From Candidatus Sericytochromatia bacterium (lineage in GTDB: Bacteria > Cyanobacteriota > Sericytochromatia > S15B-MN24 > UBA4093), in contig JAKFBU010000077.1 of the NCBI GenBank assembly GCA_036676985.1, positions 48,576 to 112,575 of the forward strand: 64,000 nucleotides of DNA. The letters run 5' to 3'. The translations under genes and the position numbers were made by a program. How positions within the stretch are numbered: position 1 is the first letter of the stretch; each line of letters opens with the position of its first letter. The notes below the pieces were generated by a model. It saw nothing but the letters and a program-made list of their open reading frames with translations, did no database searches and was not told the DNA's origin. This document shows positions 5,705 through 55,638 of this stretch, piece by piece.

Positions 5705-5935
5705 GCGATAAAACCTAGCGCCTCACTGCCGGCAGGAGCAGGCATCATAGCGAGCGGTGGACGGTTGACGTCCACCGCTCGCTTTCTCGGTCACAAACGC
5801 AGCCGGCACGCGAGCCCGCAGGGGGAGCCATGATCGCCACTTCCGGACCAGGGGAATCCCGATGTCTAGGAGCAAAATCAGGGCCTTCCTTACCGACGAT
5901 CTGCAACGTTCTATCGCATGAGTCCGCTGGCCCCC

Positions 5936-40152: not shown

Positions 40153-40393
40153 GGGCCATGGGGTGCATGGACGGGATGGGGGCGGGTTGGTCCTTAGGAC
40201 TCCTATACCCCTGCTTGATGCTTATGTTACCGGCGTGACAAGGCTTCTCTGACCCGGGCACCCAGAGGGAGTCGGCAGTGCCGCTTTCCTGGGGGCGGTT
40301 GACTTCTGACTCGCTATGGCTTAATTACTGTCAAATTTCCATTAGCTTTTATTAAGGCAGAGACGTCGAAGCTTCGAATCACAAGGAGATTGA

Positions 40394-41164
40394 ATGCGAA
40401 CAAACCGCGGAATCATCGCTGCCATCATGCTGTTGTCTATCGTTTTTATGGGGCTCGACTGGAGCCGCTTGATACTCCATCCGGCAGATTTGGAAGTCTC
40501 TCCCCTCTCCAATGCCATGAAAGTCTGTGTCTCTTTCCTGGCGACGGTGGTCGCCTGGCGAGCCCGAAACCACGGCTTCTCCAGTGGCGATGAAGCGGCT
40601 TTCCGGATCCTTTTTTCCCTCGTGTTCGTTGCCGACGTTTGCTTCGTAGTGGGCCTGGCCCCCGTGGGCATCGTCTTGTTCGCCATTTTTCAGGGGTTGC
40701 TGGCAAAGCGAAACCTGACGGGATGGCAAGAGGCTAAGGCCGCCCTCACCAGAGACTCGGCCGCGCTGGGCGGTGTGGCGTTGGGCGTCGCAGCTTCTCT
40801 CGGGGGAACGCTTTTTGGGATCTATCACTTGCAGGGGGTCACGCCCTTGCTGTTTGTGATCGCCGTCTACGTGACCTTCTTGTGGGCCTCCGTCGTGTCG
40901 GCCTGGGCATCGCGCGCCATTGGTCATTTTCCCCGCCGGAACGCGGGCATGATGGCGCTGGGGATGTCCCTCTTCTTGTTGTGTGACATCACGGTCGCCG
41001 GTAACTTGGCCCTGCCGCCGGACAGCATGATGCGTGTCGTGACGTCGAGTTTGACCTGGATGTTCTATGCACCGGCATTGGTCCTGATTGCGCTTTCCGC
41101 CTGGCGAAATCCGGTAAGCTCCGTCCCTCAGGACATTCGGCAGACGGTCGATTCCGTGAACTAA
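40394..41164 (+). CDS. YhhN/lysoplasmalogenase-like membrane protein
   Basis: multi-TM, ADVCF, GMSLFLLCDITV, WMFYAPA pattern. Confidence 0.7.
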   Translation: MRTNRGIIAAIMLLSIVFMGLDWSRLILHPADLEVSPLSNAMKVCVSFLATVVAWRARNHGFSSGDEAAFRILFSLVFVADVCFVVGLAPVGIVLFAIFQGLLAKRNLTGWQEAKAALTRDSAALGGVALGVAASLGGTLFGIYHLQGVTPLLFVIAVYVTFLWASVVSAWASRAIGHFPRRNAGMMALGMSLFLLCDITVAGNLALPPDSMMRVVTSSLTWMFYAPALVLIALSAWRNPVSSVPQDIRQTVDSVN

Positions 41165-41265
41165 GGTTGGACGGACCTGACGTCCGATATCCGGGTCAAT
41201 AATTGCTTGGGTAGTCATCCGAAATAGGCGTTTGTTCGAGTCTTTCCCGGGCCTGCCTATTAACA

Positions 41266-41340
41266 GGAGAAACAATCAGCCCCTCGTCTGCATATGAGGC
41301 GAGGGGCCTTTAGCGCGCCTGGCGAGACGACTATCGAACT
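41266..41340 (-). repeat. att-like junction R1 (hairpin + tRNA-Arg 3' half variant)
   Basis: GGAGAAACAATCAGCCCCTCGTCT-GCATATG-AGGCGAGGGGC then core TTAGCGCGCCTGGCGAGACGACTATCGAACT at 41310-41340. Confidence 0.9.
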
Positions 41341-41474
41341 TTCGTAACCGGGAATGGACCCATTAATCGGCCCGACACCTGAGCCTGGGCCCTTTGGGGG
41401 CATGTCATGTTGGTTGTCGCTTTCTGACACGGACACTTATTGCTAGAGTTTGCCTGAAAGGAGGACTAACGACA

Positions 41475-41753
41475 GTGCTTTCGAAAATCAAGCTTTCGCT
41501 CACCAGAATTGCCGTAGCTCTTTCTCTTATTTTCGCGATGAGTTTGCCAAGCGATGCGGGCAGAGGCTGTTGCTCCTGGCATGGAGGCGTGGCGGGATGC
41601 GACGAAACGGTTGGCCGCCTTGTGTGTAATGATGGGACATACTCTCCGAGCTGCACATGCGTGCGTAGTCTCCCTACGCCTGCGCCAGAACCTACGCTTA
41701 CGCCAGAGCCAATCCCTATGCCAACATCCGAAGACGAAGTGAGCAATCGGTAG
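41475..41753 (+). CDS. small secreted Cys-rich protein (cassette 1 cargo)
   Basis: AGGAGG RBS, GTG start, signal peptide, GRGCCSWHGGVAGC..VCNDGTYSPSCTC, Pro-rich tail. Confidence 0.75.
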   Translation: MLSKIKLSLTRIAVALSLIFAMSLPSDAGRGCCSWHGGVAGCDETVGRLVCNDGTYSPSCTCVRSLPTPAPEPTLTPEPIPMPTSEDEVSNR

Positions 41754-41839
41754 ACACCGCATTTGCATCAATTAATCGGTTATCCTCTATATCGGTCAAG
41801 GATTAGCCTCAAAGGGAATATCTGCATGGATGAAAAAGT

Positions 41840-41902
41840 GACCCCCCGCCTGCATTTGAGGCGAGGGGTCGTTAGCGCGCCTGGCGAGACGACTATCGAA
41901 CT
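41840..41902 (-). repeat. att-like junction R2
   Basis: GACCCCCCGCCT-GCATTTG-AGGCGAGGGGTC then identical 31-bp core at 41872-41902. Confidence 0.9.
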
Positions 41903-41914
41903 AACGTCTGCGCG

Positions 41915-42421
41915 TTATTGCGCCTGAAGCGTTACGTCTGAATTCCACAGATACTGAGCTTTTTGACCTGTTCCGCGCCGCCCGATCGTGCGGATGATCT
42001 CATCGCTGGCGAGGCCCAGTGAATGCAGTATTTCCCTGGCCCGGCTGATGGTGGGGTAAATCGAGGACGGGGACATGCCAGGGATTCCAACTTCGATGTC
42101 CTTAAGGGAGAGCGGGGTGCCTGCGTGTCGATAGAGTAGCCGAATGAGGTCCTCGACGCGGGGCGGGAGTAGGGCCCGCTTGCTTTTGTAACGCAAGGTG
42201 CCGGTAGTCAGCAGCAGGTCGCCTTCGCTTTTGGGAAGGGGAATGGGTGACGCCGTTGCCTCGGTGGCGATACGCTGAGTGTTGGGTCGGTCGTGCCCTG
42301 TCATGAGGCTTAGGGCCTGCTTGTAGGCAGCCACCCAGCCAAGGAATTGTTCCGGGGTCTGGTTCTGCTCCATGGCCTTTAGTAGGAGGTGCTCGATTAC
42401 CTCTTCCGGTGTTGTGCCCAT
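41915..42421 (-). CDS. OmpR-type winged-helix DNA-binding protein (cassette 2 cargo)
   Basis: LIRLLYRHAGTPLS..IYPTISRAREIL..IIRTIGRRG resembles Trans_reg_C; no receiver domain. Confidence 0.65.
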   Translation of the reverse strand: MGTTPEEVIEHLLLKAMEQNQTPEQFLGWVAAYKQALSLMTGHDRPNTQRIATEATASPIPLPKSEGDLLLTTGTLRYKSKRALLPPRVEDLIRLLYRHAGTPLSLKDIEVGIPGMSPSSIYPTISRAREILHSLGLASDEIIRTIGRRGTGQKAQYLWNSDVTLQAQ

Positions 42422-42743
42422 TGGCTTCCTCCCTCTGTTCAGCATCCACCCTGTTGCCACTATACACGACTAGCAAAGACTTAACACGTCTTGCTGGATA
42501 CTTTTGTTCGCGACTACTGAGGTGGCAAGCGTTCTCGATATCATCTGTCGTGCTGATTTTCGGAGTTGACCATAGGGCGAATGCATGATGAGGCTTGGCG
42601 TAACTACCAAGTTGACCAAGGTTTCGCATGATCGACGGGCTCAGTCTCCAGTATGGACGCCGACGTAATCCAAGGATAATGTGCTATTCTTGGATTCTAA
42701 GGGGCGAGGTCCAAGGTATCCAGACGAAACGCAGGAGGTGACA

Positions 42744-43982
42744 ATGGGCCGCCTTGTCGAACGTTATTGGGGATCAGACTGGGGTCGCATGGGAGGGCGA
42801 CGCGCGCGGCGCGGCTTCACGTACTTTGCGTATGTACCATCGACTGTCAGCGATCTGGAGCTGACGTTGCCCGCGGATCTCGCAGCTGAAATGATGGAGA
42901 CGGAAGCCCAACTAAGGGAATTACAGGGCGGCGCCAATCTACTGGGCCTCGAGTCGCTCAGCCGCCAGTTGCTCCGGGCCGAAAGTATCGCCTCGTCACG
43001 CATCGAGGGTCTCGAGCTTTCTCATCGCCGACTCGTCACGGCGCTCTACGATCCGGATGTCGCGGACGAGACTGCCCGTTTCGTCCTGGGAAACATCGCC
43101 GCCATGGAGTCGGCGATCCGACTTGCCACGGAATCACAGACGTTCGGCCTTACGGAACTCCTGGAGATCCATCGCCAGCTTCTGGAGCGTACGCCACTCC
43201 AGCGGATCGCCGGCCAAATCCGACTTGATCAGAACTGGATCGGGGGAGGGGCGGCAGGCCCACGCAACGCCGAATTCATACCGCCACCTGAGGACGAGGT
43301 GGAGGCCTTGCTCGAGGACTTGTGCGTCTTCATCGAACGAGACGACTTGCCTGCGATTGTCCAAGCGGCGATCGCACATGCCCAGTTCGAGACCATACAC
43401 CCTTTCGCCGATGGGAATGGGCGCGTCGGTCGTGCCCTTATTCATGCCATCCTGCGACGGCGAGGGGTTGCCACGACGATCGTTCCACCCATCAGCACCG
43501 TACTCGCCACCAACGGAGCGCGATACGTGCAAGGTCTCACCAGTTTCCGGGAAGAAAACACGCTCGATTGGTGCACATTCTTCACCCGGGTGGTGGCAAG
43601 CGCGGTCCAGCACTCAAACGATCTCGCCCATCGCCTAACCGCCCTTCAGGCCCGCTGGCATGAACAGGCCCATCATCCTCGTCGCAACTCGACCGCCGAA
43701 AAGCTCATTCAATCATTGCCCTCCAGTCCCGTGTTGGATATCCGCCTCGCGGCCGAGGTGGCTCAGGTGAGTGAAGAAGCGGCTCGTTTGGCTATCAATG
43801 CGCTCGCTGAGGCTGATGTCTTGAGTCCCATTCGGGTCGGGCGACGTAGGGGCCAGGCATGGGAGGCCAAGGAGATCGTGGCCTTACTTGATAACTTCGA
43901 ATGGGACCTCACGACTCCGACTCAACCCGAGCAACCGCGTCGTCGATCGCCTCGTCGTCGAGTCGTCCCGATGGAGAAATGA
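42744..43982 (+). CDS. Fic family protein (cassette 2 cargo)
   Basis: canonical HPFADGNGRVGR motif, ESIASSRIEG inhibitory-type helix, C-terminal HTH; AGGAGG RBS. Confidence 0.93.
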   Translation: MGRLVERYWGSDWGRMGGRRARRGFTYFAYVPSTVSDLELTLPADLAAEMMETEAQLRELQGGANLLGLESLSRQLLRAESIASSRIEGLELSHRRLVTALYDPDVADETARFVLGNIAAMESAIRLATESQTFGLTELLEIHRQLLERTPLQRIAGQIRLDQNWIGGGAAGPRNAEFIPPPEDEVEALLEDLCVFIERDDLPAIVQAAIAHAQFETIHPFADGNGRVGRALIHAILRRRGVATTIVPPISTVLATNGARYVQGLTSFREENTLDWCTFFTRVVASAVQHSNDLAHRLTALQARWHEQAHHPRRNSTAEKLIQSLPSSPVLDIRLAAEVAQVSEEAARLAINALAEADVLSPIRVGRRRGQAWEAKEIVALLDNFEWDLTTPTQPEQPRRRSPRRRVVPMEK

Positions 43983-44047
43983 GCGGCCCCCCGCCTAAGA
44001 TGCAGGCGGGGGGCCGTTAGCGCGCCTGGCGAGACGACTATCGAACC
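43973..44047 (-). repeat. att-like junction R3
   Basis: GGAGAAATGAGCGGCCCCCCGCCT-AAGATGC-AGGCGGGGGGCCG then core 44017-44047 (30/31 identical). Confidence 0.9.
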
Positions 44048-44189
44048 TTGGTAGCCAGGTTAAGTGATTTGCCGATCCGTCCTAACGCCTAAACTGGCCG
44101 TGTTTTCCTGGACGACGCTAGCCTTGGGGGCGGCTTTTAACTCGCCCAAGCCAATGAAGTCGAATCGCAGCATTGGCGAGGGGCAGACG

Positions 44190-45668
44190 CTACACGTTGG
44201 AATAGGCTCGCGTGCGCGCCACCCAGGCCATGACGTCCTCCTTGGGAGGCAAGTCTTGCAAGTCGATCAATGAGAGTTCGTCTTTCGAAATCGATTGGGA
44301 CGCTACTAGACGATTGGCATGACGCTCGAGGATCTTCTCGAAAAAGTTTCTGACTTCGCGTGCATTGCCAAAACCAGGTCCTTTGTTCTTGTAGACGTAG
44401 TCGAGAATGACTTTCGTCCCCTGAACACATCGCGGGGTCAATACATAGCCCGAATCTTCGGCCATTTTGAGGAGGATTGTATGCAGTTCCTCGGATGAGT
44501 AATCCGTAAATTCGATGTATTTGTTGAATCGCGAGCGCAGCCCCGGATTAGATTCGATAAAGTCCACCATTTTCTCGGAATAGCCAGCCACGATGACCAC
44601 TAGGTCATCCCGCCGGTCCTCCATGAGCTTCAAAAGGGTGTCGATGGCTTCACGGCCAAAGTCATTGTCACTGCCCTTTGGCGCGAGCGAATAAGCCTCA
44701 TCGATGAACAAGACGCCGCCGACAGCGCGTGAGACTACGTCACGCGTCTTGATCGCGGTCTGACCCACGTACCCCGCGACAAGACCGGATCGATCGACTT
44801 CGATCAAATGCCCCTTTGAAAGCAAGCCCAGCGAGCGGTAAACGTGCGCGAGGAGGCGGGCCACCGTCGTCTTGCCCGTGCCGGGATTACCCGAAAAGAC
44901 GAGGTGCAGAGAAAGCGGAGGAACTGGTAGCCCCGCCTGCTCACGAAGCTGGCGGACGCGTAAGAGGTTCGTCAGGGTCAAAACGTCTTGCTTGACCGGA
45001 CCCAAGCCCACCAATCGACTCAGCTGCTCCTGCAACTCCTCCCAACTCCTGGCAGGCTCCTGCTCGACCTGACTATCCTCTTGGAATTCGTCGTCCTCCT
45101 CATCGTCGAATGCTACCCGTATTCCGGTGCCGTCATCGGAAACGATCTCGATCTCGGCATCGCCATCCTCGACGTACACGCCGTTCATGCGGCAGATGAC
45201 CTGAAAGCTAGAGATTGTTTGGTTGAGGAGATCGAGCTCGCTTTCCGTGATTTTTCCGTCAATCGCGATGAGAGTCTTGCCAAGAACCTCGAACAATCCG
45301 ATTATGGCGTTCGCCATGGTGTTGTCCAGGTCCTTATCGCTTTCAATGGCTGCTTTTAGCAGCTGCGGAAAGCGAATGTGGTGATCGATTTCATCGGACA
45401 GAAAGGACTCGATGTAGCGGATCATATCTGCCTTGGAAAAGTCCAGATCCAACATCGTGCAGATGAGCTGATGCTCCTCGTCCGACAGATATTCGTCAGC
45501 CGATACGAGCAGGGCCGAAAAATAGAATAGGTTCTTGACGGTGACTTCCGACGGGTCCATATTCCGGACGATAAGGCGACTCCAGTAGCCTGCTTCCTTG
45601 AGGTTCTGAGCGCACTCGATGAGCTTTGTGGCGATGTGTTTGGCTTCTGCAACCTTCTGGGCGTTCAT
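44190..45668 (-). CDS. CbbX/SpoVK-type AAA+ ATPase with N-terminal TerB-like helical domain (cassette 3 cargo)
   Basis: HLVFSGNPGTGKTTVAR, YVGQTA, LFIDEAYSL, SNPGLRSRF, GNAREVRN; N-term ADEYLSDEE and AIDGKITESE TerB-like motifs. Confidence 0.88.
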   Translation of the reverse strand: MNAQKVAEAKHIATKLIECAQNLKEAGYWSRLIVRNMDPSEVTVKNLFYFSALLVSADEYLSDEEHQLICTMLDLDFSKADMIRYIESFLSDEIDHHIRFPQLLKAAIESDKDLDNTMANAIIGLFEVLGKTLIAIDGKITESELDLLNQTISSFQVICRMNGVYVEDGDAEIEIVSDDGTGIRVAFDDEEDDEFQEDSQVEQEPARSWEELQEQLSRLVGLGPVKQDVLTLTNLLRVRQLREQAGLPVPPLSLHLVFSGNPGTGKTTVARLLAHVYRSLGLLSKGHLIEVDRSGLVAGYVGQTAIKTRDVVSRAVGGVLFIDEAYSLAPKGSDNDFGREAIDTLLKLMEDRRDDLVVIVAGYSEKMVDFIESNPGLRSRFNKYIEFTDYSSEELHTILLKMAEDSGYVLTPRCVQGTKVILDYVYKNKGPGFGNAREVRNFFEKILERHANRLVASQSISKDELSLIDLQDLPPKEDVMAWVARTRAYSNV

Positions 45669-45684
45669 CTTGAAAAATTCCTGC

Positions 45685-46638
45685 TTATACTAGGCCATAT
45701 TCGCGGAACAATTTCATCAGTTCATTCCCATCGAGAAGTATTACTTGATTCTGTTGGGCATACTCGATGGCATCCGGTGATGTCTCGCCATTTGTGATGT
45801 AGACAATCTTGTCAAAGTTTCGGTTCCCCTTGGCAGAGAAAGGCATCATAAGCTGAAAGCGGGTGATGTACTCGTCTTCCCGAAAGTAGATGAGCCACTC
45901 TTGGCCCGACTCGAAGTGGCCGATCAGTTGCACGGCCTCATCCACATAACCAAGTTTCTCGAGCCGGCAGCGGAGTTTTCGAAATAGTTGAAAAACGAGC
46001 AGCTCCAAGCCTGATGTAGTTTCAGGCAAGGCCATGTCTTCACCAAAGGCGTCCACGTTCTCCAAATTGCCTGCCGTGCCTGCAATGAGTGCGTTGTTGT
46101 TTCTGGGCTTGGTTGGAGCCACGGGTGCCGCGTCGCTGCCGGAGGCAGCTTCTCGCTTTGGCGCCTTTTGCGGCTTGTGAGCATTGGATGGCGTTGGCTC
46201 TTGCCCCGTGCTCTCGGGTGGCGGAGCCACATAGTGTCCCAACGTAAGGAGGATCGTTCCGATTACGCAGGTGCTGAACCAGGCTGCTTGCCAGTCTGAG
46301 AAGCGGAATAACAGTTGTATCGGCAGAAAGAGGATCGCCGATACAACGAAGGCTCCAACAGCGACTTCCAGCGTAGTGAAGGGCTTGGAATCGACCGATG
46401 GTGCTTCCACTGCCTGGTTGGTCGAAGCCTTGAACGAGCGACCCGTCTTGGATTTCTGGCCATGGTTCACGGTGTAGGAAACGCCCGTTCCTGGCAACGA
46501 AACGGTAGTGCGGCTCCCATTCTTGCCTACGGTGTGCTTAAAGCCTTTTCCACCGAATGTCGTAGAAATCCCGCTCTTGCTGAAGTTAAGCGTGACGCCG
46601 GGCATCAGTTTTAGCCGACGTGAGAATCTAAATCCCAT
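45685..46638 (-). CDS. DUF4236 - 2TM - Mrr-like restriction endonuclease domain protein (cassette 3 cargo)
   Basis: N-term MGFRFSRRLKLMPGVTLNFSKSGIS..SLPGTGVSY (DUF4236); C-term ITNGETSPDAIEYA..LLDGNEL (Mrr_cat-like). Confidence 0.8.
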   Translation of the reverse strand: MGFRFSRRLKLMPGVTLNFSKSGISTTFGGKGFKHTVGKNGSRTTVSLPGTGVSYTVNHGQKSKTGRSFKASTNQAVEAPSVDSKPFTTLEVAVGAFVVSAILFLPIQLLFRFSDWQAAWFSTCVIGTILLTLGHYVAPPPESTGQEPTPSNAHKPQKAPKREAASGSDAAPVAPTKPRNNNALIAGTAGNLENVDAFGEDMALPETTSGLELLVFQLFRKLRCRLEKLGYVDEAVQLIGHFESGQEWLIYFREDEYITRFQLMMPFSAKGNRNFDKIVYITNGETSPDAIEYAQQNQVILLDGNELMKLFREYGLV

Positions 46639-47230
46639 GGAACCTCGTGATGCAGATAGAAGATCTCGTCATTTGATCGGTATACCCGATCATTGGTTAA
46701 TCGAAAGTAGAACAAATTTTCAAGCAGGACGGCAAGATAGGGGCAGCTTTCCTGCCTTTCACTGAAGTGGCCTCTTGGTTGGTTGAGAACTGCTGACCGA
46801 TATGGCCGGGTGACCTCCCCCGGAACCTTGGCTGTAGGGGATAACAGTCCTTGCTTGGGCTACGGTAAAGTGAGAGTGTCGCTCCGCGGTTGAGGTCCTT
46901 CCGAGGCGGTAAAACGGCCCAGCGGCTCTGTCGCTGGACCAAGGCGCGCTTGGAGAGGAAACGTTCGACCATTGGTCATCGGGTCATTGCGCTGGCGGGG
47001 AGATTAAGTCCTGACTAGGCCTCTGTTTCGGGGACCATGGCCGTAGGGCAGATTCGTCCTTGAGCGAGGTCTACCGAACCGCTGTCGGGAGTTCTACTTC
47101 ACTGCCTGTTCGGCGTGCGTCGCGTCGAGTGAGGCGGTTGGTCGGTCAAAGGTCGCGCCTCGGCTGCCTCCTGTTGGGGGCAATCGTCCATAAACGACGC
47201 GACGGCAGCGCTTCTGGGCCACCCTTGCGC

Positions 47231-47259
47231 TTGGAAAAGAGTGCTTGCCTGGGCATAAT
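47231..47259 (+). promoter_or_regulatory. sigma70-like promoter
   Basis: TTGGAA-N17-CATAAT upstream of GGAGGAGG RBS. Confidence 0.5.
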
Positions 47260-47289
47260 GGAAGGGCCCCACGCCCGGAGGAGGATGCC

Positions 47290-50200
47290 ATTTCAAGTCT
47301 GGTCCCTACCGTTGCAGGATACGTTCCCGACCTCTTGCTGACGTGGCCCGGATGGCATGCGGTCCCCGAGGCACGGATCGAGCGGTTACCGGGTGTCGTC
47401 CTCTTGGGGGACATCAGCGGCTTTACGGCCTTGACCGAGCGCCTGGCGCAGACGGGCACCGCCAGCGCCGAGCAACTCACGGACATCCTCAATGCCACCT
47501 TCGGACAGCTCATCGACGTCGTGTACCGCCTGGGCGGAGACGTCCTGAAGTTCGCGGGAGACGCCTTGCTTGCCGTTTGGCCTGCCACGGTTCACCCGGA
47601 TGGTCTCTCTGGGGCGCTCAACCTGGCCATCCAGTGCGGGCTCGAGATGCAGGCCCTCATGCAGGCATCGCCCTCCAACCACGAGCACCTGGCGCTGCGC
47701 GTCTCGATCGGGGCAGGGGACATCGCCATTGGAAAGGTCGGGGGAGAACGCAATCGCTGGGAGTTGCTTATCGCCGGCGATCCGCTCGCCGAGATCACGC
47801 AGATCGAGCCCGATGGTGCCCCCGGTCAGGTCCTGCTCTCAGCAGACGACGTCCCGCTGGTGGCGACGGACGTCCTGGGCCAACTCGTCTCGCCTCTCGC
47901 CTTTCGGATTGACGGCTTGCGCCGACGCTTGGTACCCGCGCCTCGAGTCGGCGGTCCGGCTGAACCGGAGATCGATGGATTGTTGGCCTTTGTGCCCGGA
48001 TCGATCCGGTCGCGTCTGGAGGCCGGGCAGACCGGCTGGCTCGCCGAGATGCGCCAGGTCTCGGTCGTCTTCATCAACTTGCCGGAGATGGGGAGCTTGG
48101 CCTCTCTCGACCGGGTCCAGGAGGTCTTTCGAGCGATCCAGGGGTGTCTCTATCGCTACGAAGGCAGCCTCAACAAGCTCAGCGTGGACGAAAAGGGCGT
48201 CTCGATCCTGGGGGCGTTCGGCCTCCCGCCGCTTGCCCATGAGGACGATCCGCTGCGGGCCCTGCAGGCGGCAAGCGATATCTGGAAGACCCTGAGTGCG
48301 CTCGGGGTACGAGCGGCCGTCGGCCTTGCCACCGGGCGGGTCTTCTGTGGTGAGGTCGGCAACGCCCGGCGCCGCGAGTACACGGTCATCGGGGATACGG
48401 TGAATCTGGCGGCACGCCTGATGCAGGCCGCAAAGCAGGGGATCCTGTGCGACGAGGCGACCCGCCTGGCCGCTCGCGATCGCTGGAGCTTCGAGGAACT
48501 GACGCCGGTTGCCTTCAAGGGCAAGGCGAAAGTGGTCTCGGTGTTTCGTCCCTTGCACATTGCGGCCCCCAAACGCCGCCGCGAGGGGCGCCTGATCGGC
48601 CGCGAGAAGGAGCTCGCAGCGCTCATCCCGCTTCAGGACGCCTTGCTCACCGGAGAGGCCACCCCGCTGGTTTGGCTCGAGGGCGAGCCGGGCATCGGGA
48701 AGTCCTACCTGGTGGACACCTTGATGCAGTCCGCCCGATCCCGGGGCCTCGCGTGCCTCCACGGTGCAGGGGACGCCATCGAGCGCGTCAGCCCCTACCG
48801 CGCCTGGCTTCCCATCCTGCACGCGATCGTCCTCGGAGACGTGGCTCCTCAGTTCCCAAACCGCGTCGAGGCGAGGCTCGAAACGCTCCTCGGCGATCGC
48901 TCCGACTTGTGGCCCATGCGATCGCTCCTCAACGCGCTGTTGCCGATCGACCTGCCCGGGAACGATGCGGTGCAGGGCCTCGATGCCACCTTGAGGGCAC
49001 AGATCACCCGCGACCTGCTCGTCGCCTTGATCCGCGGGTATGCGAGCACTCGACCCTGCATGCTGATCCTCGAAGATGCCCACTGGTTCGATTCGGCCTC
49101 GTGGCACCTCATGGCCCAGGTGGTCGCGTCCGATCGCCCTCTCTTGCTCGTCGTGACGACCCGTCCGAGCAGCCCGGTCCCCGCGGAGCTCACCGGCACC
49201 TTGAAGGGCCCCCACACACGCACCCTGCGGCTCGGCCCCCTCGAGCCGCAGGAGATCGAGGCGGTCGTGTGCGCTCGGCTGGGCGTAACGGCGCTCTCGG
49301 AACCCCTGGGGCACTTCATCCGAGAGCGCACGGAAGGCAATCCCTTCTTCAGCGAGGAGCTGGCGCTCGCTCTGCGGGAGGCGGGTCACCTGGAGCACGT
49401 CGCGGGCGAGCTACGCCTGGCGCCGACCGCTGACCCCGCCCGCTTGGACCTGCCGACCAACTTGGAGGGAATCGTCACCAGTCGACTCGATCGGTTGCCG
49501 CCGTCCCCGCAACTTCTGGCCAAGGTGGCGAGCGTCATCGGCCGCTCCTTTACCCTCGAGATGCTGACGGAGGTCTTACCGCTGGTCGACGCGCGCGAAC
49601 GCCTGCCGGAGTGGCTCGAAGAGCTCGTGGCCCTGGAGATCGTGAGCCCCGACCCGCTGGCCGACGGTCCTGCGTATCGGTTCCGGCATGCCATCACGCA
49701 CCACGTGACCTATCACTTGCTGGTGCCTAGCCAGCGACAAGCCTTGCACAGGGCCGTGGCCACGTATCTGGAGGCCGGGCCCGATCAGCGCGACCAGCTG
49801 CCCCACCTCACGCTTTTGGCCCATCACTGGGTGCAGGCCGACGATGTGGAACGCGCCTTTCCCTACCTCGAGCGGGCTGGCGACCATGCCCTCGCGACCA
49901 GTGCCCATCTCGAAGCCATAGAGTGTTACTCGCAGGCCTTGGCGCTGGCCGATCAGGGGCGGCTAGGCGTCGAGGCGGACACGATCATCCGGTTGCACGA
50001 CCGCCTGGGAGAGGCGTGTTTTGGTCTGGGGCGCATGACCGAGGCTCGGCAGCACCTGGAGCAGGGGCTGGCTAGACTTGGTCTTCCGATCGCAGAGACA
50101 TGGTCAGGGATCGGCAAGGGCATCACCAGCGAGATCTGGGCGCAGGTCGTGCAATGCTGGAAGCTTCCGTGGGGATGCCGCTCTAATTCCCTGTCGCAGG

Positions 50201-51357
50201 ACGCGCGGCTGCAAGCCGCGCGCCTGTTGGAGTTGCTCTTCGGGGCCTACATGTACACCAACGACCATGTGCGAGCGGCCTACGTCGCCCTGCGTGCCCT
50301 CAACCTTATCGAAAGCCTACCGCACACGGCCGAGTGGGCGCTTGCCAACGCGGAGATCGCCGCTCTGGTGTCTCACCTCAACGTGCGCAAGGTGTCCAAC
50401 TACTACCATGCGCGGGCCGAGGCGGCGGTCGGGACGCTCGACAACCTGTCACTGCGATCCCGCGTGCTCCAGATGAGCGGCATCTACTGGATGAATCTGA
50501 ACGACGCCCCGCGACTCAATCGGGTGCTCGAAGAGGCGATCGCCTTGACGGAACGCATGGGCGATCGCCGCGTCTGGGCCGAGTGCATGCACCTTCTGGG
50601 CTACAAGCACTACCAGCGGTGCGAATACACGTCTGCCATCATGGTGGGTGAGCGCCTGGCGGCAGCCTCGGAGCGGGCCGGGGACCTGCAAATGCAGGGC
50701 GGGGGGATCACGCTCGTGGCCTATGCTCTGTCCGATCTGGGCCGCGACGATGAAGCCTTGGCTTTGCTGGACGCCAATCAGCGCGTCTTCGAATGGAGCG
50801 AGAACCCGCTGGTCCCGATCAACCTGCAGGCCATACGCGCCAAGGCCCTGCTGCGCCTCGGGCGGCATGAGGACGCGTTGGCGGCCGCATGGGCCGTGGC
50901 CGACCAGCTCGAGCGATATGTTCCGACCGGGGATCCCGGTATCGGCGCACACCAGGTCGTCTGGTCCGTTCTCTACGAGTTGACGATCCTCCGCCGGTCG
51001 GCGATGGAGGGCGATCGCGAGCGCATCCTCAAGTTTGGGTGGCGCACGGCCTCGATCTTGCACGGTGCGGCACATGGGAGCCGGCAGCTCGAAAGCTCTG
51101 CCGAACTCGTGCGCGGTCAAGTCCAAGCCTTTGACGGGTGCACGCGCGACGCGATCCGAGCCTGGAAGCGGGCCTTGGAGCGGGCGCTTCGTCAGGATCA
51201 TCGCCACCAACTCGGGCTCGTCCACCTGGAGTTCGCGCGCCACGAACAGACGCCCAAAGCCCGTCGTGCCGTGCACCTTGGCGAAGCCGCGGCGAGTTTC
51301 GAAGCCATCGGCGCCCGATATGAACTGGAACTCGTTCGCACCTTACAGGCCCGCTAG
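47290..51357 (+). CDS. tandem class III adenylate/guanylate cyclase - STAND AAA ATPase - TPR protein (cassette 3 cargo); start codon uncertain
   Basis: GDISGFTALTE, KFAGDA, GDTVNLAARLM, GEPGIGKS, LEDAHWFD, EGNPFF, TPR-like C-terminus. Confidence 0.9.
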   Translation: MSSLVPTVAGYVPDLLLTWPGWHAVPEARIERLPGVVLLGDISGFTALTERLAQTGTASAEQLTDILNATFGQLIDVVYRLGGDVLKFAGDALLAVWPATVHPDGLSGALNLAIQCGLEMQALMQASPSNHEHLALRVSIGAGDIAIGKVGGERNRWELLIAGDPLAEITQIEPDGAPGQVLLSADDVPLVATDVLGQLVSPLAFRIDGLRRRLVPAPRVGGPAEPEIDGLLAFVPGSIRSRLEAGQTGWLAEMRQVSVVFINLPEMGSLASLDRVQEVFRAIQGCLYRYEGSLNKLSVDEKGVSILGAFGLPPLAHEDDPLRALQAASDIWKTLSALGVRAAVGLATGRVFCGEVGNARRREYTVIGDTVNLAARLMQAAKQGILCDEATRLAARDRWSFEELTPVAFKGKAKVVSVFRPLHIAAPKRRREGRLIGREKELAALIPLQDALLTGEATPLVWLEGEPGIGKSYLVDTLMQSARSRGLACLHGAGDAIERVSPYRAWLPILHAIVLGDVAPQFPNRVEARLETLLGDRSDLWPMRSLLNALLPIDLPGNDAVQGLDATLRAQITRDLLVALIRGYASTRPCMLILEDAHWFDSASWHLMAQVVASDRPLLLVVTTRPSSPVPAELTGTLKGPHTRTLRLGPLEPQEIEAVVCARLGVTALSEPLGHFIRERTEGNPFFSEELALALREAGHLEHVAGELRLAPTADPARLDLPTNLEGIVTSRLDRLPPSPQLLAKVASVIGRSFTLEMLTEVLPLVDARERLPEWLEELVALEIVSPDPLADGPAYRFRHAITHHVTYHLLVPSQRQALHRAVATYLEAGPDQRDQLPHLTLLAHHWVQADDVERAFPYLERAGDHALATSAHLEAIECYSQALALADQGRLGVEADTIIRLHDRLGEACFGLGRMTEARQHLEQGLARLGLPIAETWSGIGKGITSEIWAQVVQCWKLPWGCRSNSLSQDARLQAARLLELLFGAYMYTNDHVRAAYVALRALNLIESLPHTAEWALANAEIAALVSHLNVRKVSNYYHARAEAAVGTLDNLSLRSRVLQMSGIYWMNLNDAPRLNRVLEEAIALTERMGDRRVWAECMHLLGYKHYQRCEYTSAIMVGERLAAASERAGDLQMQGGGITLVAYALSDLGRDDEALALLDANQRVFEWSENPLVPINLQAIRAKALLRLGRHEDALAAAWAVADQLERYVPTGDPGIGAHQVVWSVLYELTILRRSAMEGDRERILKFGWRTASILHGAAHGSRQLESSAELVRGQVQAFDGCTRDAIRAWKRALERALRQDHRHQLGLVHLEFARHEQTPKARRAVHLGEAAASFEAIGARYELELVRTLQAR

Positions 51358-51466
51358 GCGAAGACCAAGGCCCCTTAGCCTCAAGGCTTGGGCCTGCGAC
51401 TAGAAGTTGTTGAATAGGCGTTTTTCCCATTTGCCTGGTGACCCGGCGAGAACTATCGCTAATAGT

Positions 51467-51533
51467 GAACCCCCGCAAACCGTGATGGCTTGCGGGGGTT
51501 CGTCAGCGCGCCTGGCGAGACAACTATCGAACT
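51467..51533 (-). repeat. att-like junction R4
   Basis: GAACCCCCGCAA..TTGCGGGGGTTC hairpin then TCAGCGCGCCTGGCGAGACAACTATCGAACT (29/31 identical) at 51503-51533. Confidence 0.88.
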
Positions 51534-51701
51534 ACATTAACTAGGTTAAGTGAATTACCGATCGCTCCTAACACTTGACTTGGCCTTGATTTCTGGGACC
51601 ACGTCGGCTCCTCCAGCTCTGCAAAATTTCCATCGTCTCTATGTTCACATAATAACCTTCTTGTAATAATGTCACATCTGGATTCATAAAGGAGTGCATC
51701 C

Positions 51702-52313
51702 ATGATTGCTCTGAGCTCCGTAACTTCTTCGCTAAAGGCAGCCAAGTCCATTCAGGCCTTTGTCGAAGGCGGAATACTCTCGACCATTCTGTCAGCCATT
51801 GGAGACGTGGAATACCGCGCAGCGGCTCGAGTTCTTAGGAATCTTAATGAAGCATCGAATCAACGGGAGCGGGTTTTGTCGGCAATTAACCACTTAGAAA
51901 CGTCCCATATAGCATATTCAACTGATATAAATCGAATGACTGGCATAATCGAATATGTTCGTGGGATTAAACGAATGTCCGTGGCAAAAAAAGACGTATT
52001 TACGCTATGTATTCTGGCTATCTGCTATAAATACACAGGAGAATTGACCCTTATGAGGGAGTCTCTGGATCAGGCCAAAGAGGTTTTGAATATTTATCCC
52101 AAGATGGAAGATCAAACCATTAAAGAAATTTTTTGCGACAAGAAGCACAGGAGTCAATACGTCAAGGCCTTGACATCAATTATTCCTACCTATTTCACGC
52201 CCGGCATCCTAAAAGAAATCGACGACACGCCAACCATCTATGGCGCCGATTTTGAGTCCTTTCAAGCCGAACTGCTCTCAAAGGTTGTTGCCGAGCCTTC
52301 ATCCGTTGTTTAG
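51702..52313 (+). CDS. AT-rich hypothetical protein (cassette 4 cargo)
   Basis: AAGGAG RBS, 203-aa ORF in visibly AT-richer DNA. Confidence 0.65.
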   Translation: MIALSSVTSSLKAAKSIQAFVEGGILSTILSAIGDVEYRAAARVLRNLNEASNQRERVLSAINHLETSHIAYSTDINRMTGIIEYVRGIKRMSVAKKDVFTLCILAICYKYTGELTLMRESLDQAKEVLNIYPKMEDQTIKEIFCDKKHRSQYVKALTSIIPTYFTPGILKEIDDTPTIYGADFESFQAELLSKVVAEPSSVV

Positions 52314-52348
52314 GCCTCGCTAGACCGAAGTATAGAAAGGAGCGGGCA

Positions 52349-52648
52349 ATGCAATCAGTAGCTCAGGATGTAAAGCCCTTGTATTGGCAGAACAGTTACC
52401 ATAACCTGAGTGGATACTATCCAGGGTTTACAGTCTATAGAAATCGCATTGAGTACGATAACCGTCCCTTCATGCCGAGTGGTCGAATCACCGTTTACTT
52501 TAAGAACATCGTTAGCGTTGATGCTGTTGGCAACGGCATCTTATCCTACAAACGGGTAGTAATTACAACGATGGATGGGGATAGGCATGAGATCAGGACA
52601 AAGGAAAATCACGAGTTGAGAGAGATCATCTTGGGGCTGACGAAGTAA
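52349..52648 (+). CDS. small PH-fold-like hypothetical protein (cassette 4 cargo)
   Basis: AAGGAG RBS, 99 aa, FTVYRNRIEY..VYFKNIVSV..VVITT pattern of bacterial PH domains. Confidence 0.6.
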   Translation: MQSVAQDVKPLYWQNSYHNLSGYYPGFTVYRNRIEYDNRPFMPSGRITVYFKNIVSVDAVGNGILSYKRVVITTMDGDRHEIRTKENHELREIILGLTK

Positions 52649-52803
52649 TCCTGAGGCCCTATTCGTGAACCAATCCATTGCCGGACAAGCTCAATTCCCG
52701 TGAGAACTCACCTTTCTATCTGTCCGGCGCTGGGGGAGCAGGTCAGTCCCGTTGGTCCCATTCCAATAACCGGCTCCAGACTTGGAAAACCCAACTCTCA
52801 ACC

Positions 52804-53961
52804 TTATGCCGAAATCTCACTTCCCGCCGCCCGGTAGGCAGCCAGAATTAGGGGAACCAACGCCTTGATGTCGGAAATATCGCTGATCACCACCCGACAC
52901 GAATCCGCCGCTTGGTTATAGTTTTCGACCTTGCCCGCATCACCAAGAATGGCGTTCGCCTGTGACAGAGGGATATGGAAGACGACCGATTTCTTGTCGG
53001 TGCCGAACAGAAGGCGCATGAACCAGCGGGATGGCTTCTCCAAATGTATGACAAAGTAGCTGGCCGTATCCTTGTAAGCCACATGGGAATCCCCACCATT
53101 GGTGGCCTTGATGGTCTCACAGACCAGGTTGAAAGCGGCCAGCTCCTCTTCAGTGGTAACCACCGCGGTCTTGAAGTCGGGAGACTTGGTTCCTTCCGCT
53201 GCAGGCACCAGGTCCTGAGCCGAAGGAACAATCGCGGCGACCTCGTCGGTCTTGGCGATCTCCTGGGTGAGGCCCTGGGAGACCATGTCGACCAACACGT
53301 CGGACATTGCCTGCTGGACGAGCGGCGTCAGGCGTTCCAGGACATTGGCCGTAATGCGCCCCTGGTAGATGTCGCTGCACATGAACCGCACAAACTCGTC
53401 CGAGGTGTCTCGGAACAAGGACCGTACCTTCTTCTTGAGGGTCCGCAGGTAGACCAGGTTCTCCGCACGAGTGACCAGCCCCGAGGGATCGAAGCAATCG
53501 GCCCGGAACCCATCGAGGATGGCGATCTCCTCCGGGCGAATCGACTCGATCTCGAACTCGAAAAACGGCTCCGAGTCCATGAGGTTCGGCGCTTTGAGAT
53601 CTGTAAAGAACTTGTACCGGACCCCGTTCGTGATGACGGCGAGCTTGACCCCGGGCGTCGAGTTGAAGTACTTGGCGAGCTGGGCGTCGTAGTTGTCTAG
53701 CTGCGAGGCCACGGGTTTCGCCTCTACGAAGAGCACTGGCGCCCCCTTGAGGAAGACCGCGTAGTCCACCTTTTCCTTGTTGGCCGCAAACCCGGCGCGA
53801 TATTCGGGATAGAGTACCGACGGATCGTGGATGTCGTAGCCGAGGACTTGGAAGAAGGGCAGGATCAGGGAGTTCTTGGTCAACTCCTCGTTCCCCTTGC
53901 AGTGCTCCTTACGAGCAGAAACCTGGGAGGCCAACCTGTAGACTTCTTCAGCGAATCCCAT
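52804..53961 (-). CDS. type I restriction enzyme HsdR N-terminal-domain nuclease protein (stand-alone; cassette 4 cargo)
   Basis: EELTKNSLILPFFQVLGYD, EKVDYA..FVEAK PD-(D/E)xK, QLAKYF, ITNGVRYKFFTDL..NLMDSEPF, VVTTEEE. Confidence 0.88.
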   Translation of the reverse strand: MGFAEEVYRLASQVSARKEHCKGNEELTKNSLILPFFQVLGYDIHDPSVLYPEYRAGFAANKEKVDYAVFLKGAPVLFVEAKPVASQLDNYDAQLAKYFNSTPGVKLAVITNGVRYKFFTDLKAPNLMDSEPFFEFEIESIRPEEIAILDGFRADCFDPSGLVTRAENLVYLRTLKKKVRSLFRDTSDEFVRFMCSDIYQGRITANVLERLTPLVQQAMSDVLVDMVSQGLTQEIAKTDEVAAIVPSAQDLVPAAEGTKSPDFKTAVVTTEEELAAFNLVCETIKATNGGDSHVAYKDTASYFVIHLEKPSRWFMRLLFGTDKKSVVFHIPLSQANAILGDAGKVENYNQAADSCRVVISDISDIKALVPLILAAYRAAGSEISA

Positions 53962-54219
53962 ATGGTCCTTCCTTTGCAGGGTAGCTAGGCAGTGTCACGT
54001 GAATTTCCTCGTTATAGACCTGGATCATGGCAACGGATCGGCGAGGGTCCGCCAACGATTGTACTTGGCAAGCGGACGTCATGCAATTTTGCTTATTTAT
54101 TTTTACGGTGACGATTTGTTCGGTTTGCGCCAGTTCGCGGCTCAGATACCGTCCTGTGACCTGATCTCGAAATCCTGTCCAGCAAAGGCTTTTGGGACAA
54201 ACGAGTTGACGGAAAGTGC

Positions 54220-54236
54220 GAGTCTCACTGAGACTC
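54220..54236. promoter_or_regulatory. perfect 8-1-8 palindrome, candidate protein-binding site
   Basis: GAGTCTCA-C-TGAGACTC. Confidence 0.45.
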
Positions 54237-54247
54237 ACCTTCACGTC

Positions 54248-54295
54248 GGAGAAACGATCGGCCCCCCGTCTGCATTTGAGACGGGGGGCTGTTAG
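54248..54295 (-). terminator. hairpin immediately 3' of tRNA-Arg; same family as R1-R3 hairpins
   Basis: GGAGAAACGATCGGCCCCCCGTCT-GCATTTG-AGACGGGGGGCTGTTAG. Confidence 0.8.
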
Positions 54296-54368
54296 CGCGC
54301 CTGACAAGACTCGAACTTGTGACTTCTTGCTCCGGAGGCAAGCGCTCTATCCACTGAGCTACAGGCGC
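54296..54368 (-). tRNA. tRNA-Arg(CCG), CCA not encoded
   Basis: folds as GCGCCTG TA GCTC AGTGGATA GAGC G CTTGC CTCCGGA GCAAG AAGTC ACAAG TTCGAGT CTTGT CAGGCGC G (73 nt), anticodon CCG. Confidence 0.97.
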
Positions 54369-54938: not shown

Positions 54939-55474
54939 TAGAGGAGGGGCTGGATTTCCTTCATGAAGGCGTCCTTGAGCTCCTCCTCGGTCGACCCGGG
55001 CAGGCCCACGAACTTCTTCACGATGTTGCCCTTGCGGTCCACGATGAACGTGGTGGGGATGCCCCGGATGCCACCGTAGGCCGAGACCACGCCCTGGTCC
55101 CCGATGACCACCGGGTAGTTCATCTTGTTTTCCTTGACGAAGGGAGCCACCACCGAGTCGCCCTTCTGGTCCAGCGAGATGCCGATGATCTCGACGCCCT
55201 TGCCCTTGAGATCCTTGTACATGCTGATGAAGTGCGGGATCTCCTCGCGGCAGGGCGGGCACCAGGTCGCCCAGAAGTTCACGATGCGGACCTTGCCGCT
55301 GTAGTCGGAGAGCTTGACGGCCTTGCCGTCGCCCGTGCGAGGCAGGGAGAAGTCGGGGGCCTGCTTGGGGGCGGCGATCGCCACACCGGCCGAGGGGTCG
55401 AACGCGGGCACGGCGAGCACGCCGAACGCGGCCAGCGCCACGGAAAGGGGAAGCCACTGCTTCAACGTCGCCAT
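54938..55474 (-). CDS. TlpA/ResA family thiol-disulfide oxidoreductase
   Basis: APDFSL, NFWATWCPPCREEIP, GIPTTF. Confidence 0.92.
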   Translation of the reverse strand: MATLKQWLPLSVALAAFGVLAVPAFDPSAGVAIAAPKQAPDFSLPRTGDGKAVKLSDYSGKVRIVNFWATWCPPCREEIPHFISMYKDLKGKGVEIIGISLDQKGDSVVAPFVKENKMNYPVVIGDQGVVSAYGGIRGIPTTFIVDRKGNIVKKFVGLPGSTEEELKDAFMKEIQPLL

Positions 55475-55638
55475 GTCGTTATCTCCTTCGTAGGGATTGG
55501 AAGCTTTCAAGTAACGTACCCCGAGGGCCGCCCGGAGTGCAAGCCTCCTGGATCCGTTGGACTTGCCGCGACTCCGTTTGGTTCCGGCTCGCTCCCTGGT
55601 ATAACACTTCTAGCCTGCCTTCCCGAGGAGATGCCGCC

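Follow-up and report, generated by a model that had tools for sequence, protein, structure and literature searches.

Most cataloged genomic islands are defined by their integrase, and site-bounded elements without a recombinase are usually dismissed as relics. Defense genes, for their part, spread between genomes faster than the known vehicles account for. Here we describe a tandem array of small segments at the 3' end of a tRNA-Arg(CCG) gene in a 64,000-nt stretch of DNA from a soil bacterium of the Candidatus Sericytochromatia (contig JAKFBU010000077.1, positions 48,576 to 112,575; "the window" below means this whole stretch). The closest described systems are the cis-mobilizable elements (CIMEs) of ICESt1-related Streptococcus islands, which are tandem segments bounded by attachment (att) sites at the 3' end of a single target gene (Pavlovic 2004 and Bellanger 2011, cited in PMC5704250). 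PMC5704250 describes some CIMEs without integration or transfer genes yet with both attL and attR, and new elements that enter an existing att site. In the Dehalococcoides ssrA islands (McMurdie et al. 2011, PMC3146451) tandem islands are recognizable by many direct repeats that copy the 3' end of a small RNA gene, and a conserved 15-bp motif just upstream of the repeat, which has no match to the target, marks the insertion point; 15 islands are without an integration module and are proposed to be CIMEs, and 16 have a serine integrase module. The account of the Prochlorococcus tycheposons (10.1101/2020.12.28.424599) describes repeated tRNA integrations in which partial tRNAs act as separators and newcomers push older elements inward, with partial tRNAs scattered in the islands, and a 2026 preprint on att-delimited islands treats tandem integrations of at least 2 kb. 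An earlier note on the window stated that such islands normally carry their own integrase, and this understates the literature, as integrase-less att-bounded tandem islands are in print (CIMEs and the 15 Dehalococcoides ssrA islands). Among the papers listed by full-text searches for integrase-less or non-autonomous tRNA islands, none has a comparable family in its title or abstract. Our reading of the array, to which we give a probability of about 50%, is that it consists of non-autonomous att-bounded mini-islands that an integrase supplied in trans would insert, lose and swap at the tRNA 3' end.

The window corresponds to C77:48576-112575 of a 79-contig, 4.68-Mb genome (G000), which is a metagenome bin with 5% contamination. 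A 31-bp core is found in four copies, starting on the plus strand of the window at 41310, 41872, 44017 and 51503 with 0, 0, 1 and 2 mismatches, and the spacings from core to core, and on to the tRNA, are 562, 2145, 7486 and 2789 bp. The expected number by chance was 0.00 (none seen in 100 shuffles), which confirmed the earlier description of four cores (31, 31, 30 and 29 of 31 identical) in the orientation of the tRNA, each followed by a GC-rich hairpin. When reverse-complemented, each core aligns with the 3' end of tRNA-Arg(CCG), and all cores therefore share its orientation. The last bases of the tRNA together with CTAA make up a 12-nt block that is common to the tRNA and the cores; inside the core it was found five times, each time in tRNA orientation and downstream of the tRNA, and the proposed anchoring of the array at this tRNA 3' end was borne out by the block and its orientation. 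A repeat search showed that the repeated unit is really ~76 nt long, with a "GGAGAAA"-like trailing stretch, the hairpin and the core, and that it is present in 5 copies including the tRNA's own trailer. Unit identity to R2 was 82% for both R1 and R3, 66% for the tRNA copy and 62% for R4, in agreement with the remark that the hairpin of R4 is different. The anchor and the units, from the tRNA outward, are as follows.

54295..54368, minus strand: tRNA-Arg(CCG), the anchor and the sole tRNA of the window (ARAGORN; Rfam tRNA, 71.2 bits; sequence)
54246..54294, minus strand: trailer of the tRNA, with a hairpin at 54259-54289 and then GATCGTTTCTCC; same family as the hairpins after R1-R3
51457..51603, minus strand: unit R4, with a left arm of ~70 nt, core 51503-51533 (2 mismatches) and a different hairpin; 112 nt at 78% to R3
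~46902..47003, minus strand: unit R3b, degenerate, with the family arm and pseudo-T-loop carrying the 5-nt insertion, then a tRNA-Arg(CCT)-like trailer/terminator
43971..44117, minus strand: unit R3, with a left arm, core 44017-44047 (1 mismatch) and hairpin 43986-44016
41826..41902, minus strand: unit R2, with core 41872-41902 (exact) and hairpin, without the family left arm
41264..41405, minus strand: unit R1, farthest from the tRNA, with a weakly similar left arm, core 41310-41340 (exact) and hairpin

Within the core only the 12 nt CAGGCGCGCTAA match the tRNA exactly, comprising the acceptor 3' strand, the discriminator and 4 nt of trailer. The other 19 nt, on the left, read AGTTCGA-TAGTC-GTCTCGC against AGTTCGA-GTCTTGT in the tRNA, and are a T-loop-like copy (pseudo-T-loop) with a 5-nt insertion and 2 changes; the view of the core as tRNA-derived thus holds for the 12 identical nt, and has to be modified for the remaining 19. 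The left parts are homologous among units, as R3, R4 and the first unit on contig C28 (C28a, see below) share ~65 nt and R1 is more weakly related. R2 is without the family left arm because an open reading frame (ORF) ends 12 nt away. The right parts vary, with several hairpin types of which one is CCT-type; a GC-rich hairpin is present in every unit but one (C28a has no clear hairpin), and the hairpin sequences differ between loci. R1 and R2 have the only 31/31 identical pair of cores, and their shared homology is 53 nt at 94%. A predicted 9-bp helix inside the core is invariant and hence gives no covariation signal. Judged from the sequence, this putative unit anatomy fits attR-type junctions. 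A pairing between arm (CCTGGC) and core (GCCAGG) was considered and dropped, as it is not kept in the related units of G018 and G007 or in C28a. The Rfam search returned only the tRNA, with two sub-threshold P35 matches on hairpins, and by eye no dif-like 11-6-11 layout was seen in the unit.

The degenerate unit R3b (~46929-47003 by its narrower limits) has the same orientation as the others and is matched only weakly by the nhmmer profile at ~46944-46990 (E 1.6 alone). Its trailer is the genome's best non-self match to the tRNA-Arg(CCT) 3' end plus terminator (56 nt, 77%, E 3.7e-5), it scores 50.2 bits with covariance model R1, of which R3b is itself one of the training rows, and it sits at the sharpest GC break of the array (54.5% on one side and 66.1% on the other). 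Counted as a unit, R3b divides the 7486-bp segment in two, and the array therefore has five segments; the spacings of the four segments described before hold, and only this largest one had to be split. A further unit at ~40349-40380, spotted by eye, was rejected since neither profile supports it. The five segments, and a low-GC stretch beyond R1, are listed here in window order.

40270..41263: low-GC (56.8%) stretch beyond R1, with ORF 40394-41164 (plus strand, 256 aa, without family)
41341..41825: cassette A, 562 bp, GC 52.6%; one ORF 41394-41753 (plus strand), a small Cys-rich protein with a hydrophobic N-terminus
41903..43970: cassette B, 2145 bp, GC 58.9%; ORF 41915-42460 (minus strand), divergent from a SoFic-type Fic gene 42681-43982 (plus strand)
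44048..46901: cassette C1, ~2.9 kb, GC 54.5%; CbbX/SpoVK-like AAA ATPase 44190-45668 (minus strand) and DUF4236+Mrr_cat nuclease-like protein 45685-46638 (minus strand)
47004..51456: cassette C2, ~4.6 kb, GC 66.1% (genome-like); one gene of 1370 aa, 47245-51357 (plus strand), with cyclase, AAA_16 and TPR domains
51534..54245: cassette D, 2789 bp, GC 51.4%; ORFs 51702-52313 and 52349-52648 (both plus strand, without family) and an HSDR_N nuclease-domain protein 52804-53961 (minus strand)

The composition of the array is mostly foreign, as four of the five segments have a GC content of 51-59% in a genome of 67.3%, where the 1st percentile of 2.5-kb pieces is 58.6%; C2 (66.1%) is the exception, and no GC gradient runs along the array. 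Both strands carry genes, which have upstream regions of their own. In cassette B the two divergent genes are separated by a 220-nt gap, and a 272-nt gap separates the divergent pair across R3b at the C1/C2 boundary. The Fic protein of cassette B matches Pfam Fic (E 5.9e-21) and the PADLOC SoFic profile PDLC03963 (E 2.2e-74), the latter over its full length (residues 49-404 on profile positions 7-359 of 361), and it carries HPFADGNGRVGR, which fits the consensus of the Fic active-site motif; by these profile matches it is a SoFic-type protein and a predicted anti-phage defense gene. The Fic stop codon (43980-43982) had been placed inside R3, and it does belong to the 76-nt unit, where it ends 3 nt short of the R3 hairpin and outside the 31-bp core. 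Similarly, the distance of 12 nt between the stop of ORF 41915-42460 and the R2 core was correct, and the label of winged helix-turn-helix (wHTH) given to this ORF was by appearance only, as it has no Pfam or NCBIfam match. The ORF of cassette A has only sub-threshold family matches, and an ORF of 91 aa at 46697-46972, overlapping R3b, is doubtful. When cassettes A and B were compared by blastn with plasmids, only the Fic core region was matched (12 records), and the same comparison with phages gave no match. Homology to the same-genus genome ends at 40269, and the stretch from 40270 to 41263 may be an older segment or insertion; a profile search found no unit at its far end.

Three further units are present elsewhere in G000, at C30:2192-2272, C28:8157-8234 (C28a; 8136-8256 by its wider limits) and C28:17164-17262. 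The unit on C30 lies 2.1 kb behind tRNA-Arg(CCT), with a Fic gene (57% identical to that of cassette B) and a PRiA4_ORF3 gene in between. The core family is accordingly not confined to the tRNA-Arg(CCG) locus. At the same time, a profile from the 8 units, run over the whole 4.68 Mb, found only these 8 displaced units at 3 loci and two tRNA-Arg 3' ends (E 6.8e-10 and 0.0016), with nothing else below E 0.5. The repeat is thus without the scatter of repetitive extragenic palindromic (REP) elements, as predicted, yet also occurs beyond this tRNA; the many scattered, tRNA-independent intergenic copies typical of REP elements or miniature inverted-repeat transposable elements (MITEs) were not seen in this search. 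A 12-mer at C41:150938 was taken as chance, in GC-rich coding DNA. The CCT-type trailer of R3b in the CCG array, together with a CCG-type block in the C30 unit at the CCT locus, suggests exchange between both tRNA-Arg loci, and we could reconstruct no single event that yields both.

Several features of these loci are recorded in their own right. In C30 1-2300, tRNA-Arg(CCT) at 48-122 is followed by its terminator and, ~50 nt past this, by an inverted copy of its own T-arm/acceptor end with 2 extra T-loop bases; palindromic CCTTGGGTA/TACCCAAGG motifs come next, upstream of the SoFic paralog. The relative G005 has a comparable inverted T-arm copy after one of its units. On C28, genes for an HlyD protein and a C39-peptidase ABC exporter lie between the two units, the second unit is without the 5-nt insertion and has an inverted hairpin loop, and an island of 41-45% GC is found at 19-24 kb, past the second unit. 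Overlaps between contigs of the G000 bin are exactly 123 nt long. C68 stops one base past tRNA-Arg(CCT), and its only continuation within the bin is into C30, which we infer to be an assembly-graph branch at that tRNA end.

To what extent the unit is shared by relatives was seen with a sequence-only covariance model of seven units, which gave matches in 8 of 61 genomes at E ≤0.01, including G000. The seven foreign loci were judged by eye, and those in G007, G018, G005 and G004 (contig C51) were kept; the loci in G055, G014 and G011 were dropped, having no GTTCGA-type pseudo-T-loop with hairpin. Among a further 150 genomes of the phylum only one genuine tRNA-Arg gene was added. With a relaxed core pattern, 3 metagenome matches were obtained and taken as chance, as they lie in coding-looking DNA without hairpin, CTAA or tRNA. 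The units kept are:

G007: unit 0.83 kb behind tRNA-Arg(ACG), with the TAGTC insertion, 15 nt identical to that tRNA and a different trailer
G004 (C51): unit 1.17 kb behind tRNA-Val(CAC), the right side of which copies the last bases and trailer of that tRNA
G018 (other family of the order): unit 11.9 kb behind tRNA-Arg(CCT), with arm and pseudo-T-loop near R3/R4
G005: two units 2.4 kb apart, with IS3-type ORFs between them

In G007 and G004 a conserved element end is therefore joined to local target sequence, and the tRNAs at C30, G007 and G004 are followed by unrelated trailers. That the same element end is found at different local tRNA ends argues for a mobile sequence that recombines at the acceptor strand/tRNA 3' boundary. 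The segment of G018 holds three large helicase/SNF2/sacsin-like genes. An empty site could not be defined, as the family-level genomes share only the upstream redoxin side (a redoxin gene adjoins tRNA-Arg(CCG) in three family relatives) and all their downstream sides differ; in the same-genus genome the contig stops before the tRNA and the left flank is rearranged. Homologs of the Fic protein (51-59% identical) were found in 5 other genomes of 47 in the class, often beside other tRNA fragments, such as a 31-nt repeat behind tRNA-Leu in G013, a 46-nt piece of tRNA-Arg(CCT) in G004 and a 30-mer present three times in G002. The contigs with these Fic homologs gave no match to PF00589. An integrase downstream of tRNA-Arg(CCT) in G007, guessed from the look of the ORF, was rejected as its contig has no PF00589 match, and a tRNA-adjacent ORF in G004 was not accepted as an integrase N-terminus, with only Arm-DNA-bind_4 at E 0.15, below cut-off; tblastn of this ORF against G000 found nothing on C77.

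Other observations were made at the same relatives. G007 has, at C28:226000-243000, a pair of full tRNA-Arg(ACG) genes that point the same way and are 7.8 kb apart, and the unit with its 0.83-kb low-GC segment is directly behind the first. In G002 (C41:17065-20094) a tRNA gene is apparently split by ~200 nt in the anticodon loop and is not called by ARAGORN; the insert is possibly a group I intron. The 3' part of this split tRNA (the 30-mer) recurs twice on C27, once directly after a SoFic homolog beside a TIR-domain gene. G013:C89 has a 187-nt direct repeat, 98% identical, at 1707-1893 and 5534-5720, one copy of which is just downstream of the Fic gene in a 2.77-kb segment bounded by the 31-nt repeat behind tRNA-Leu(CAA).

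The claim that neither the array nor the rest of the window encodes an integrase or other mobility gene was upheld by the Pfam and PF00589/PF00239 scans, as no Pfam recombinase domain was found among the 13 array ORFs scanned and no mobility family in 31 further ORFs of the window, where DDE transposase families were given no separate search. Six-frame searches of the genome with PF00589 (5 matches) and PF00239 (2 matches) had none on C77, C30 or C28, and since the PF00589 search reads through stops, this includes integrase pseudogenes and fragments on these contigs. The upstream neighbor of the tRNA is an AhpC/TSA redoxin gene, not intI or attI. The tyrosine recombinases of G000 are two Xer-sized genes, one gene beside tRNA-SeC, one on C41 and a pseudogene at tRNA-Met. 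Of recombinase genes beside the core elsewhere, for which a search had been proposed, none was found next to a unit of G000 or in the segments of the four relatives. Altogether, none of 11 unit-bounded segments (0.56-12 kb, five genomes: A, B, C1, C2, D, the C30 segment and the segment between the two C28 units in G000, and one each in G007, G004:C51, G018 and G005) contains a PF00589 or PF00239 gene or another Pfam recombinase. The segments of 562, ~830 and ~1170 bp are too small for an integrase gene. In addition, convergent stop codons flank the whole unit in cassette B at distances of 12 nt and 3 nt, which leaves no room, and no scar, for a lost integrase gene. Neither an adjacent functional element nor a decay remnant was found beside the array.

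Natural variation of the array was visible in public sequence runs, of which four out of 18 were examined: two came from a groundwater study (X4 and X6), one from a rhizosphere (X7) and one from a different sample of the source study (X5). They were compared as Logan contigs, built with k=31, which is exactly the length of the core. A single 2340-nt contig of X5 (depth 4.96) covers 41000-41309 and goes on at 41872-43901, leaving out 562 nt, with 31 nt that fit both sides. The depth bins over the cassette A region in this run (2.14 and 3.38) are the contribution of that contig alone, and X5 has no contig at ≥90% identity on cassette A. Cassettes B-D are covered in X5 at ≥99%, by contigs on B, C1, C2 and D with 0-7 differences. 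From the exact join and the uncovered cassette A it follows that a population without cassette A, joined at the core, exists, and the predicted gain or loss of cassettes exactly at the cores is thereby seen for one cassette between samples. Cassette A is the only variable cassette seen and is the one farthest from the tRNA; this, the 31/31 pair formed by its cores and the lack of a GC gradient give no support to the idea that the newest cassette lies next to the tRNA. Among the matches listed, R4 is bridged in two studies (X4 record 6, X5 record 14), and record 9 of X5 reaches across the R1/R2 junction into B. Other contig joints in the runs, with sides of 20-42 nt at conserved motifs, were disregarded. 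Separately, the AhpC/TSA redoxin gene at 54984-55617 showed very high contig depths in all four runs (up to 182), with many loose ends; this peak is due to a conserved gene common to many organisms in the samples.

How such an array could arise is outlined by the following model, in which we infer site-specific recombination, an enzyme acting in trans and the position of the crossover. Five small non-autonomous elements (0.56, 2.1, ~2.9, ~4.6 and 2.8 kb) would follow one another at the tRNA-Arg(CCG) 3' end, and every boundary would be a junction left by site-specific recombination and made of three parts. One would be the conserved end of the element, an arm of up to ~65 nt with the pseudo-T-loop GTTCGATAGTCGTCTCGC, which has 5 extra nt compared to a real T-loop. 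Next to it, a short block identical to the acceptor strand of the target and the first trailer bases would be the likely crossover region, and the trailer hairpin would come from the neighboring cassette or from the original site. Circular cassettes would enter at the tRNA end, or at any unit already present, by the action of an integrase made elsewhere (from a chromosomal gene or a helper element), and the same integrase would excise a cassette between two units. The cargo would be mostly foreign DNA with its own promoters, including the SoFic anti-phage gene and nuclease/ATPase pairs.

A number of results weigh against this model. The cognate integrase was not found, as no tyrosine recombinase of G000 adjoins a unit, and the non-Xer integrases of G000 and related genomes sit at other tRNAs, are not orthologous and are at most 42% identical to each other; with a 79-contig metagenome bin, a helper could be unbinned. 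The exact core at ≤3 mismatches occurs in one of 61 genomes, which is G000 itself, and in none of the public genome, metagenome and viral collections. For the two C28 units, ~9 kb apart, neither C28 nor the contig joined to it (C42) contains a tRNA. The acceptor-like block of the C30 unit fits tRNA-Arg(CCG) and not the adjacent tRNA-Arg(CCT), and a simple one-step integration therefore fails for some copies. As for the runs, the k-mer length equals that of the core, so the join in X5 amounts to one contig at depth ~5, the cassette A variant is equally explained by a RecA deletion between the 31-bp repeats (53 bp at 94%), and no excised circle or empty-site junction was seen.

Four other explanations compete with integration in trans. 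Decayed autonomous islands, each of which came with an integrase and lost its integration module to become a CIME-type relic that is immobile or mobile in cis, are a possibility that we rate as rather unlikely. Neutral relics of some age would not be expected to keep near-identical cores (31, 31, 30 and 29 of 31) while their arms are 78% alike, and the segments are compact, with genes abutting the units and three of them below 1.2 kb; none of the 11 keeps an integrase or a detectable fragment of one. Decay would, on the other hand, be the standard three-step route to a CIME (PMC5704250), the tycheposon preprint (10.1101/2020.12.28.424599) has fragmented integrases and scattered partial tRNAs, and the relatives offer some parallels: other islands bounded by tRNA fragments in G004, G002 and G013, the tRNA-adjacent G004 ORF with its weak Arm-DNA-bind_4 match (E 0.15, below cut-off), and normal integrase-bearing elements at other tRNAs in these genomes. 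The lack of any recombinase remnant, the three segments below 1.2 kb and the stops of cassette B argue that the elements never carried an integrase, and as they are apparently integrase-free from the start, cassettes served in trans are favored over decayed islands. Homology alone is a still less probable explanation, with the units being duplicated tRNA trailers and the cassettes shifting by homologous recombination over 30-140 nt after uptake, or by unequal crossing-over. The perfect 31 nt shared by R1 and R2 (53 nt at 94%) suffice for rare RecA events, the X5 variant is the exact product of a direct-repeat deletion, no integrase was found, and exchange through shared homology allows mixed units at two tRNA-Arg loci. 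It leaves unexplained, however, why one conserved arm, together with a pseudo-T-loop bearing an identical 5-nt insertion, is joined to different local tRNA ends across genera and families, and how the first copy originated at each site, and homology on the tRNA-proximal side of the cassettes is poor at several loci (the trailers at C30, G007 and G004 being unrelated).

A dedicated capture platform with an unrecognized recombinase, either an integron analog or an RNA- or structure-guided enzyme for which the units act as attC and the tRNA end as attI, appears improbable. It would account for the one-sided conservation, with nearly the whole site at one cassette end as in attC, for very small cassettes (one with a single ORF), for toxin-antitoxin (TA)-like and defense cargo as in chromosomal integrons, and for the lack of a linked tyrosine or serine recombinase in five genomes. 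Yet no conserved gene accompanies the units and a redoxin gene lies upstream of the tRNA, the genes are on both strands with intergenic regions of their own, and the hairpin sequences vary freely (C28a has no clear one); the predicted core helix is invariant. Least credible, and very improbable in our view, is an assembly artifact in which repeats joined unrelated contigs. Repeats are the classic places for misjoins, the bin has 79 contigs and 5% contamination, and its contig ends overlap by 123 nt; the units (~76 nt, of which at most 53 nt are near-identical) are however shorter than this 123-nt overlap, and all 30 depth bins are covered by independent runs of another study. R4 is bridged in X4 and X5, and the R1/R2 junction in X5.

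Outside the array, the flanks of the window contain inverted repeats at 36885-37056 and 57621-57792 (67-72 nt, 74-78% complementary, 20.5 kb apart), which lie in paralogous histidine-kinase-type genes at 35167-37221 and 57423-62717.

If the segments are true helper-dependent cassettes, integrase-based island finders miss them, and the pseudo-T-loop with its 5-nt insertion would be a search key for more. They would also provide a simple, testable system of one site and one enzyme for the shuffling of single defense genes such as SoFic. A much broader proposal, which we consider doubtful, is that an order of soil bacteria carries recombinase-less mini-islands as exchangeable cassettes, many of them defense or TA-like, at tRNA-Arg and tRNA-Val via a pseudo-tRNA site and served in trans; tRNA ends would then be capture platforms and an integron analog that evolved from tRNA-targeting integration. 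Should the segments be no more than relics, the locus would be a decayed hot spot of the ordinary kind.

Compared with known systems, the array resembles integrons and clusters of attC sites lacking integrases (CALINs) in some respects, as these are arrays of small cassettes with one site per cassette end, a recombinase encoded outside the cassette and excision between two sites, and TA and defense cargo is common in them. The earlier integron-like interpretation did not survive, since intI, attI and Pc are missing here, the array has genes on both strands and with upstream regions of their own (including the 220-nt divergent gap in cassette B), and the sites derive from a tRNA 3' end. Recombinase-less segments with short sites and an enzyme encoded elsewhere are also known from the staphylococcal cassette chromosome (SCC), in the composite islands at rlmH (pseudo-SCC), and from the pdif modules of Acinetobacter plasmids; these depend on Ccr serine recombinases and on XerCD, respectively, and their enzymes, sites and targets all differ from those of the array.

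The tycheposons carry their own integrase, which is fragmented in decayed ones, and neither state was seen here. In the ssrA islands the target-unlike motif is paralleled by our pseudo-T-loop, whereas those islands have a known enzyme encoded locally and a 20-bp repeat, target tmRNA, are larger and carry rdhA genes. With CIMEs the array shares direct repeats of a tRNA 3' end, foreign segments, the lack of integration and transfer genes, and att-like sites that are kept. In contrast to CIMEs, no segment of the array, and none of the 11 in five genomes, has an integrase, and there is therefore no neighbor that could mobilize the others in cis; the segments are also far smaller (0.56-4.6 kb) and without decay scars. 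CIMEs are defined by decay of an integrative and conjugative (ICE) or integrative and mobilizable element (IME) and by an adjacent cis-mobilizing element, and neither of these was found. Taken together, the array is a small, CIME-like form of the known tandem accretion of islands and not an integron. What is new about it is a family of att-bounded cassettes that are very small, lack a recombinase, share a distinctive pseudo-T-loop site and carry defense-type cargo.

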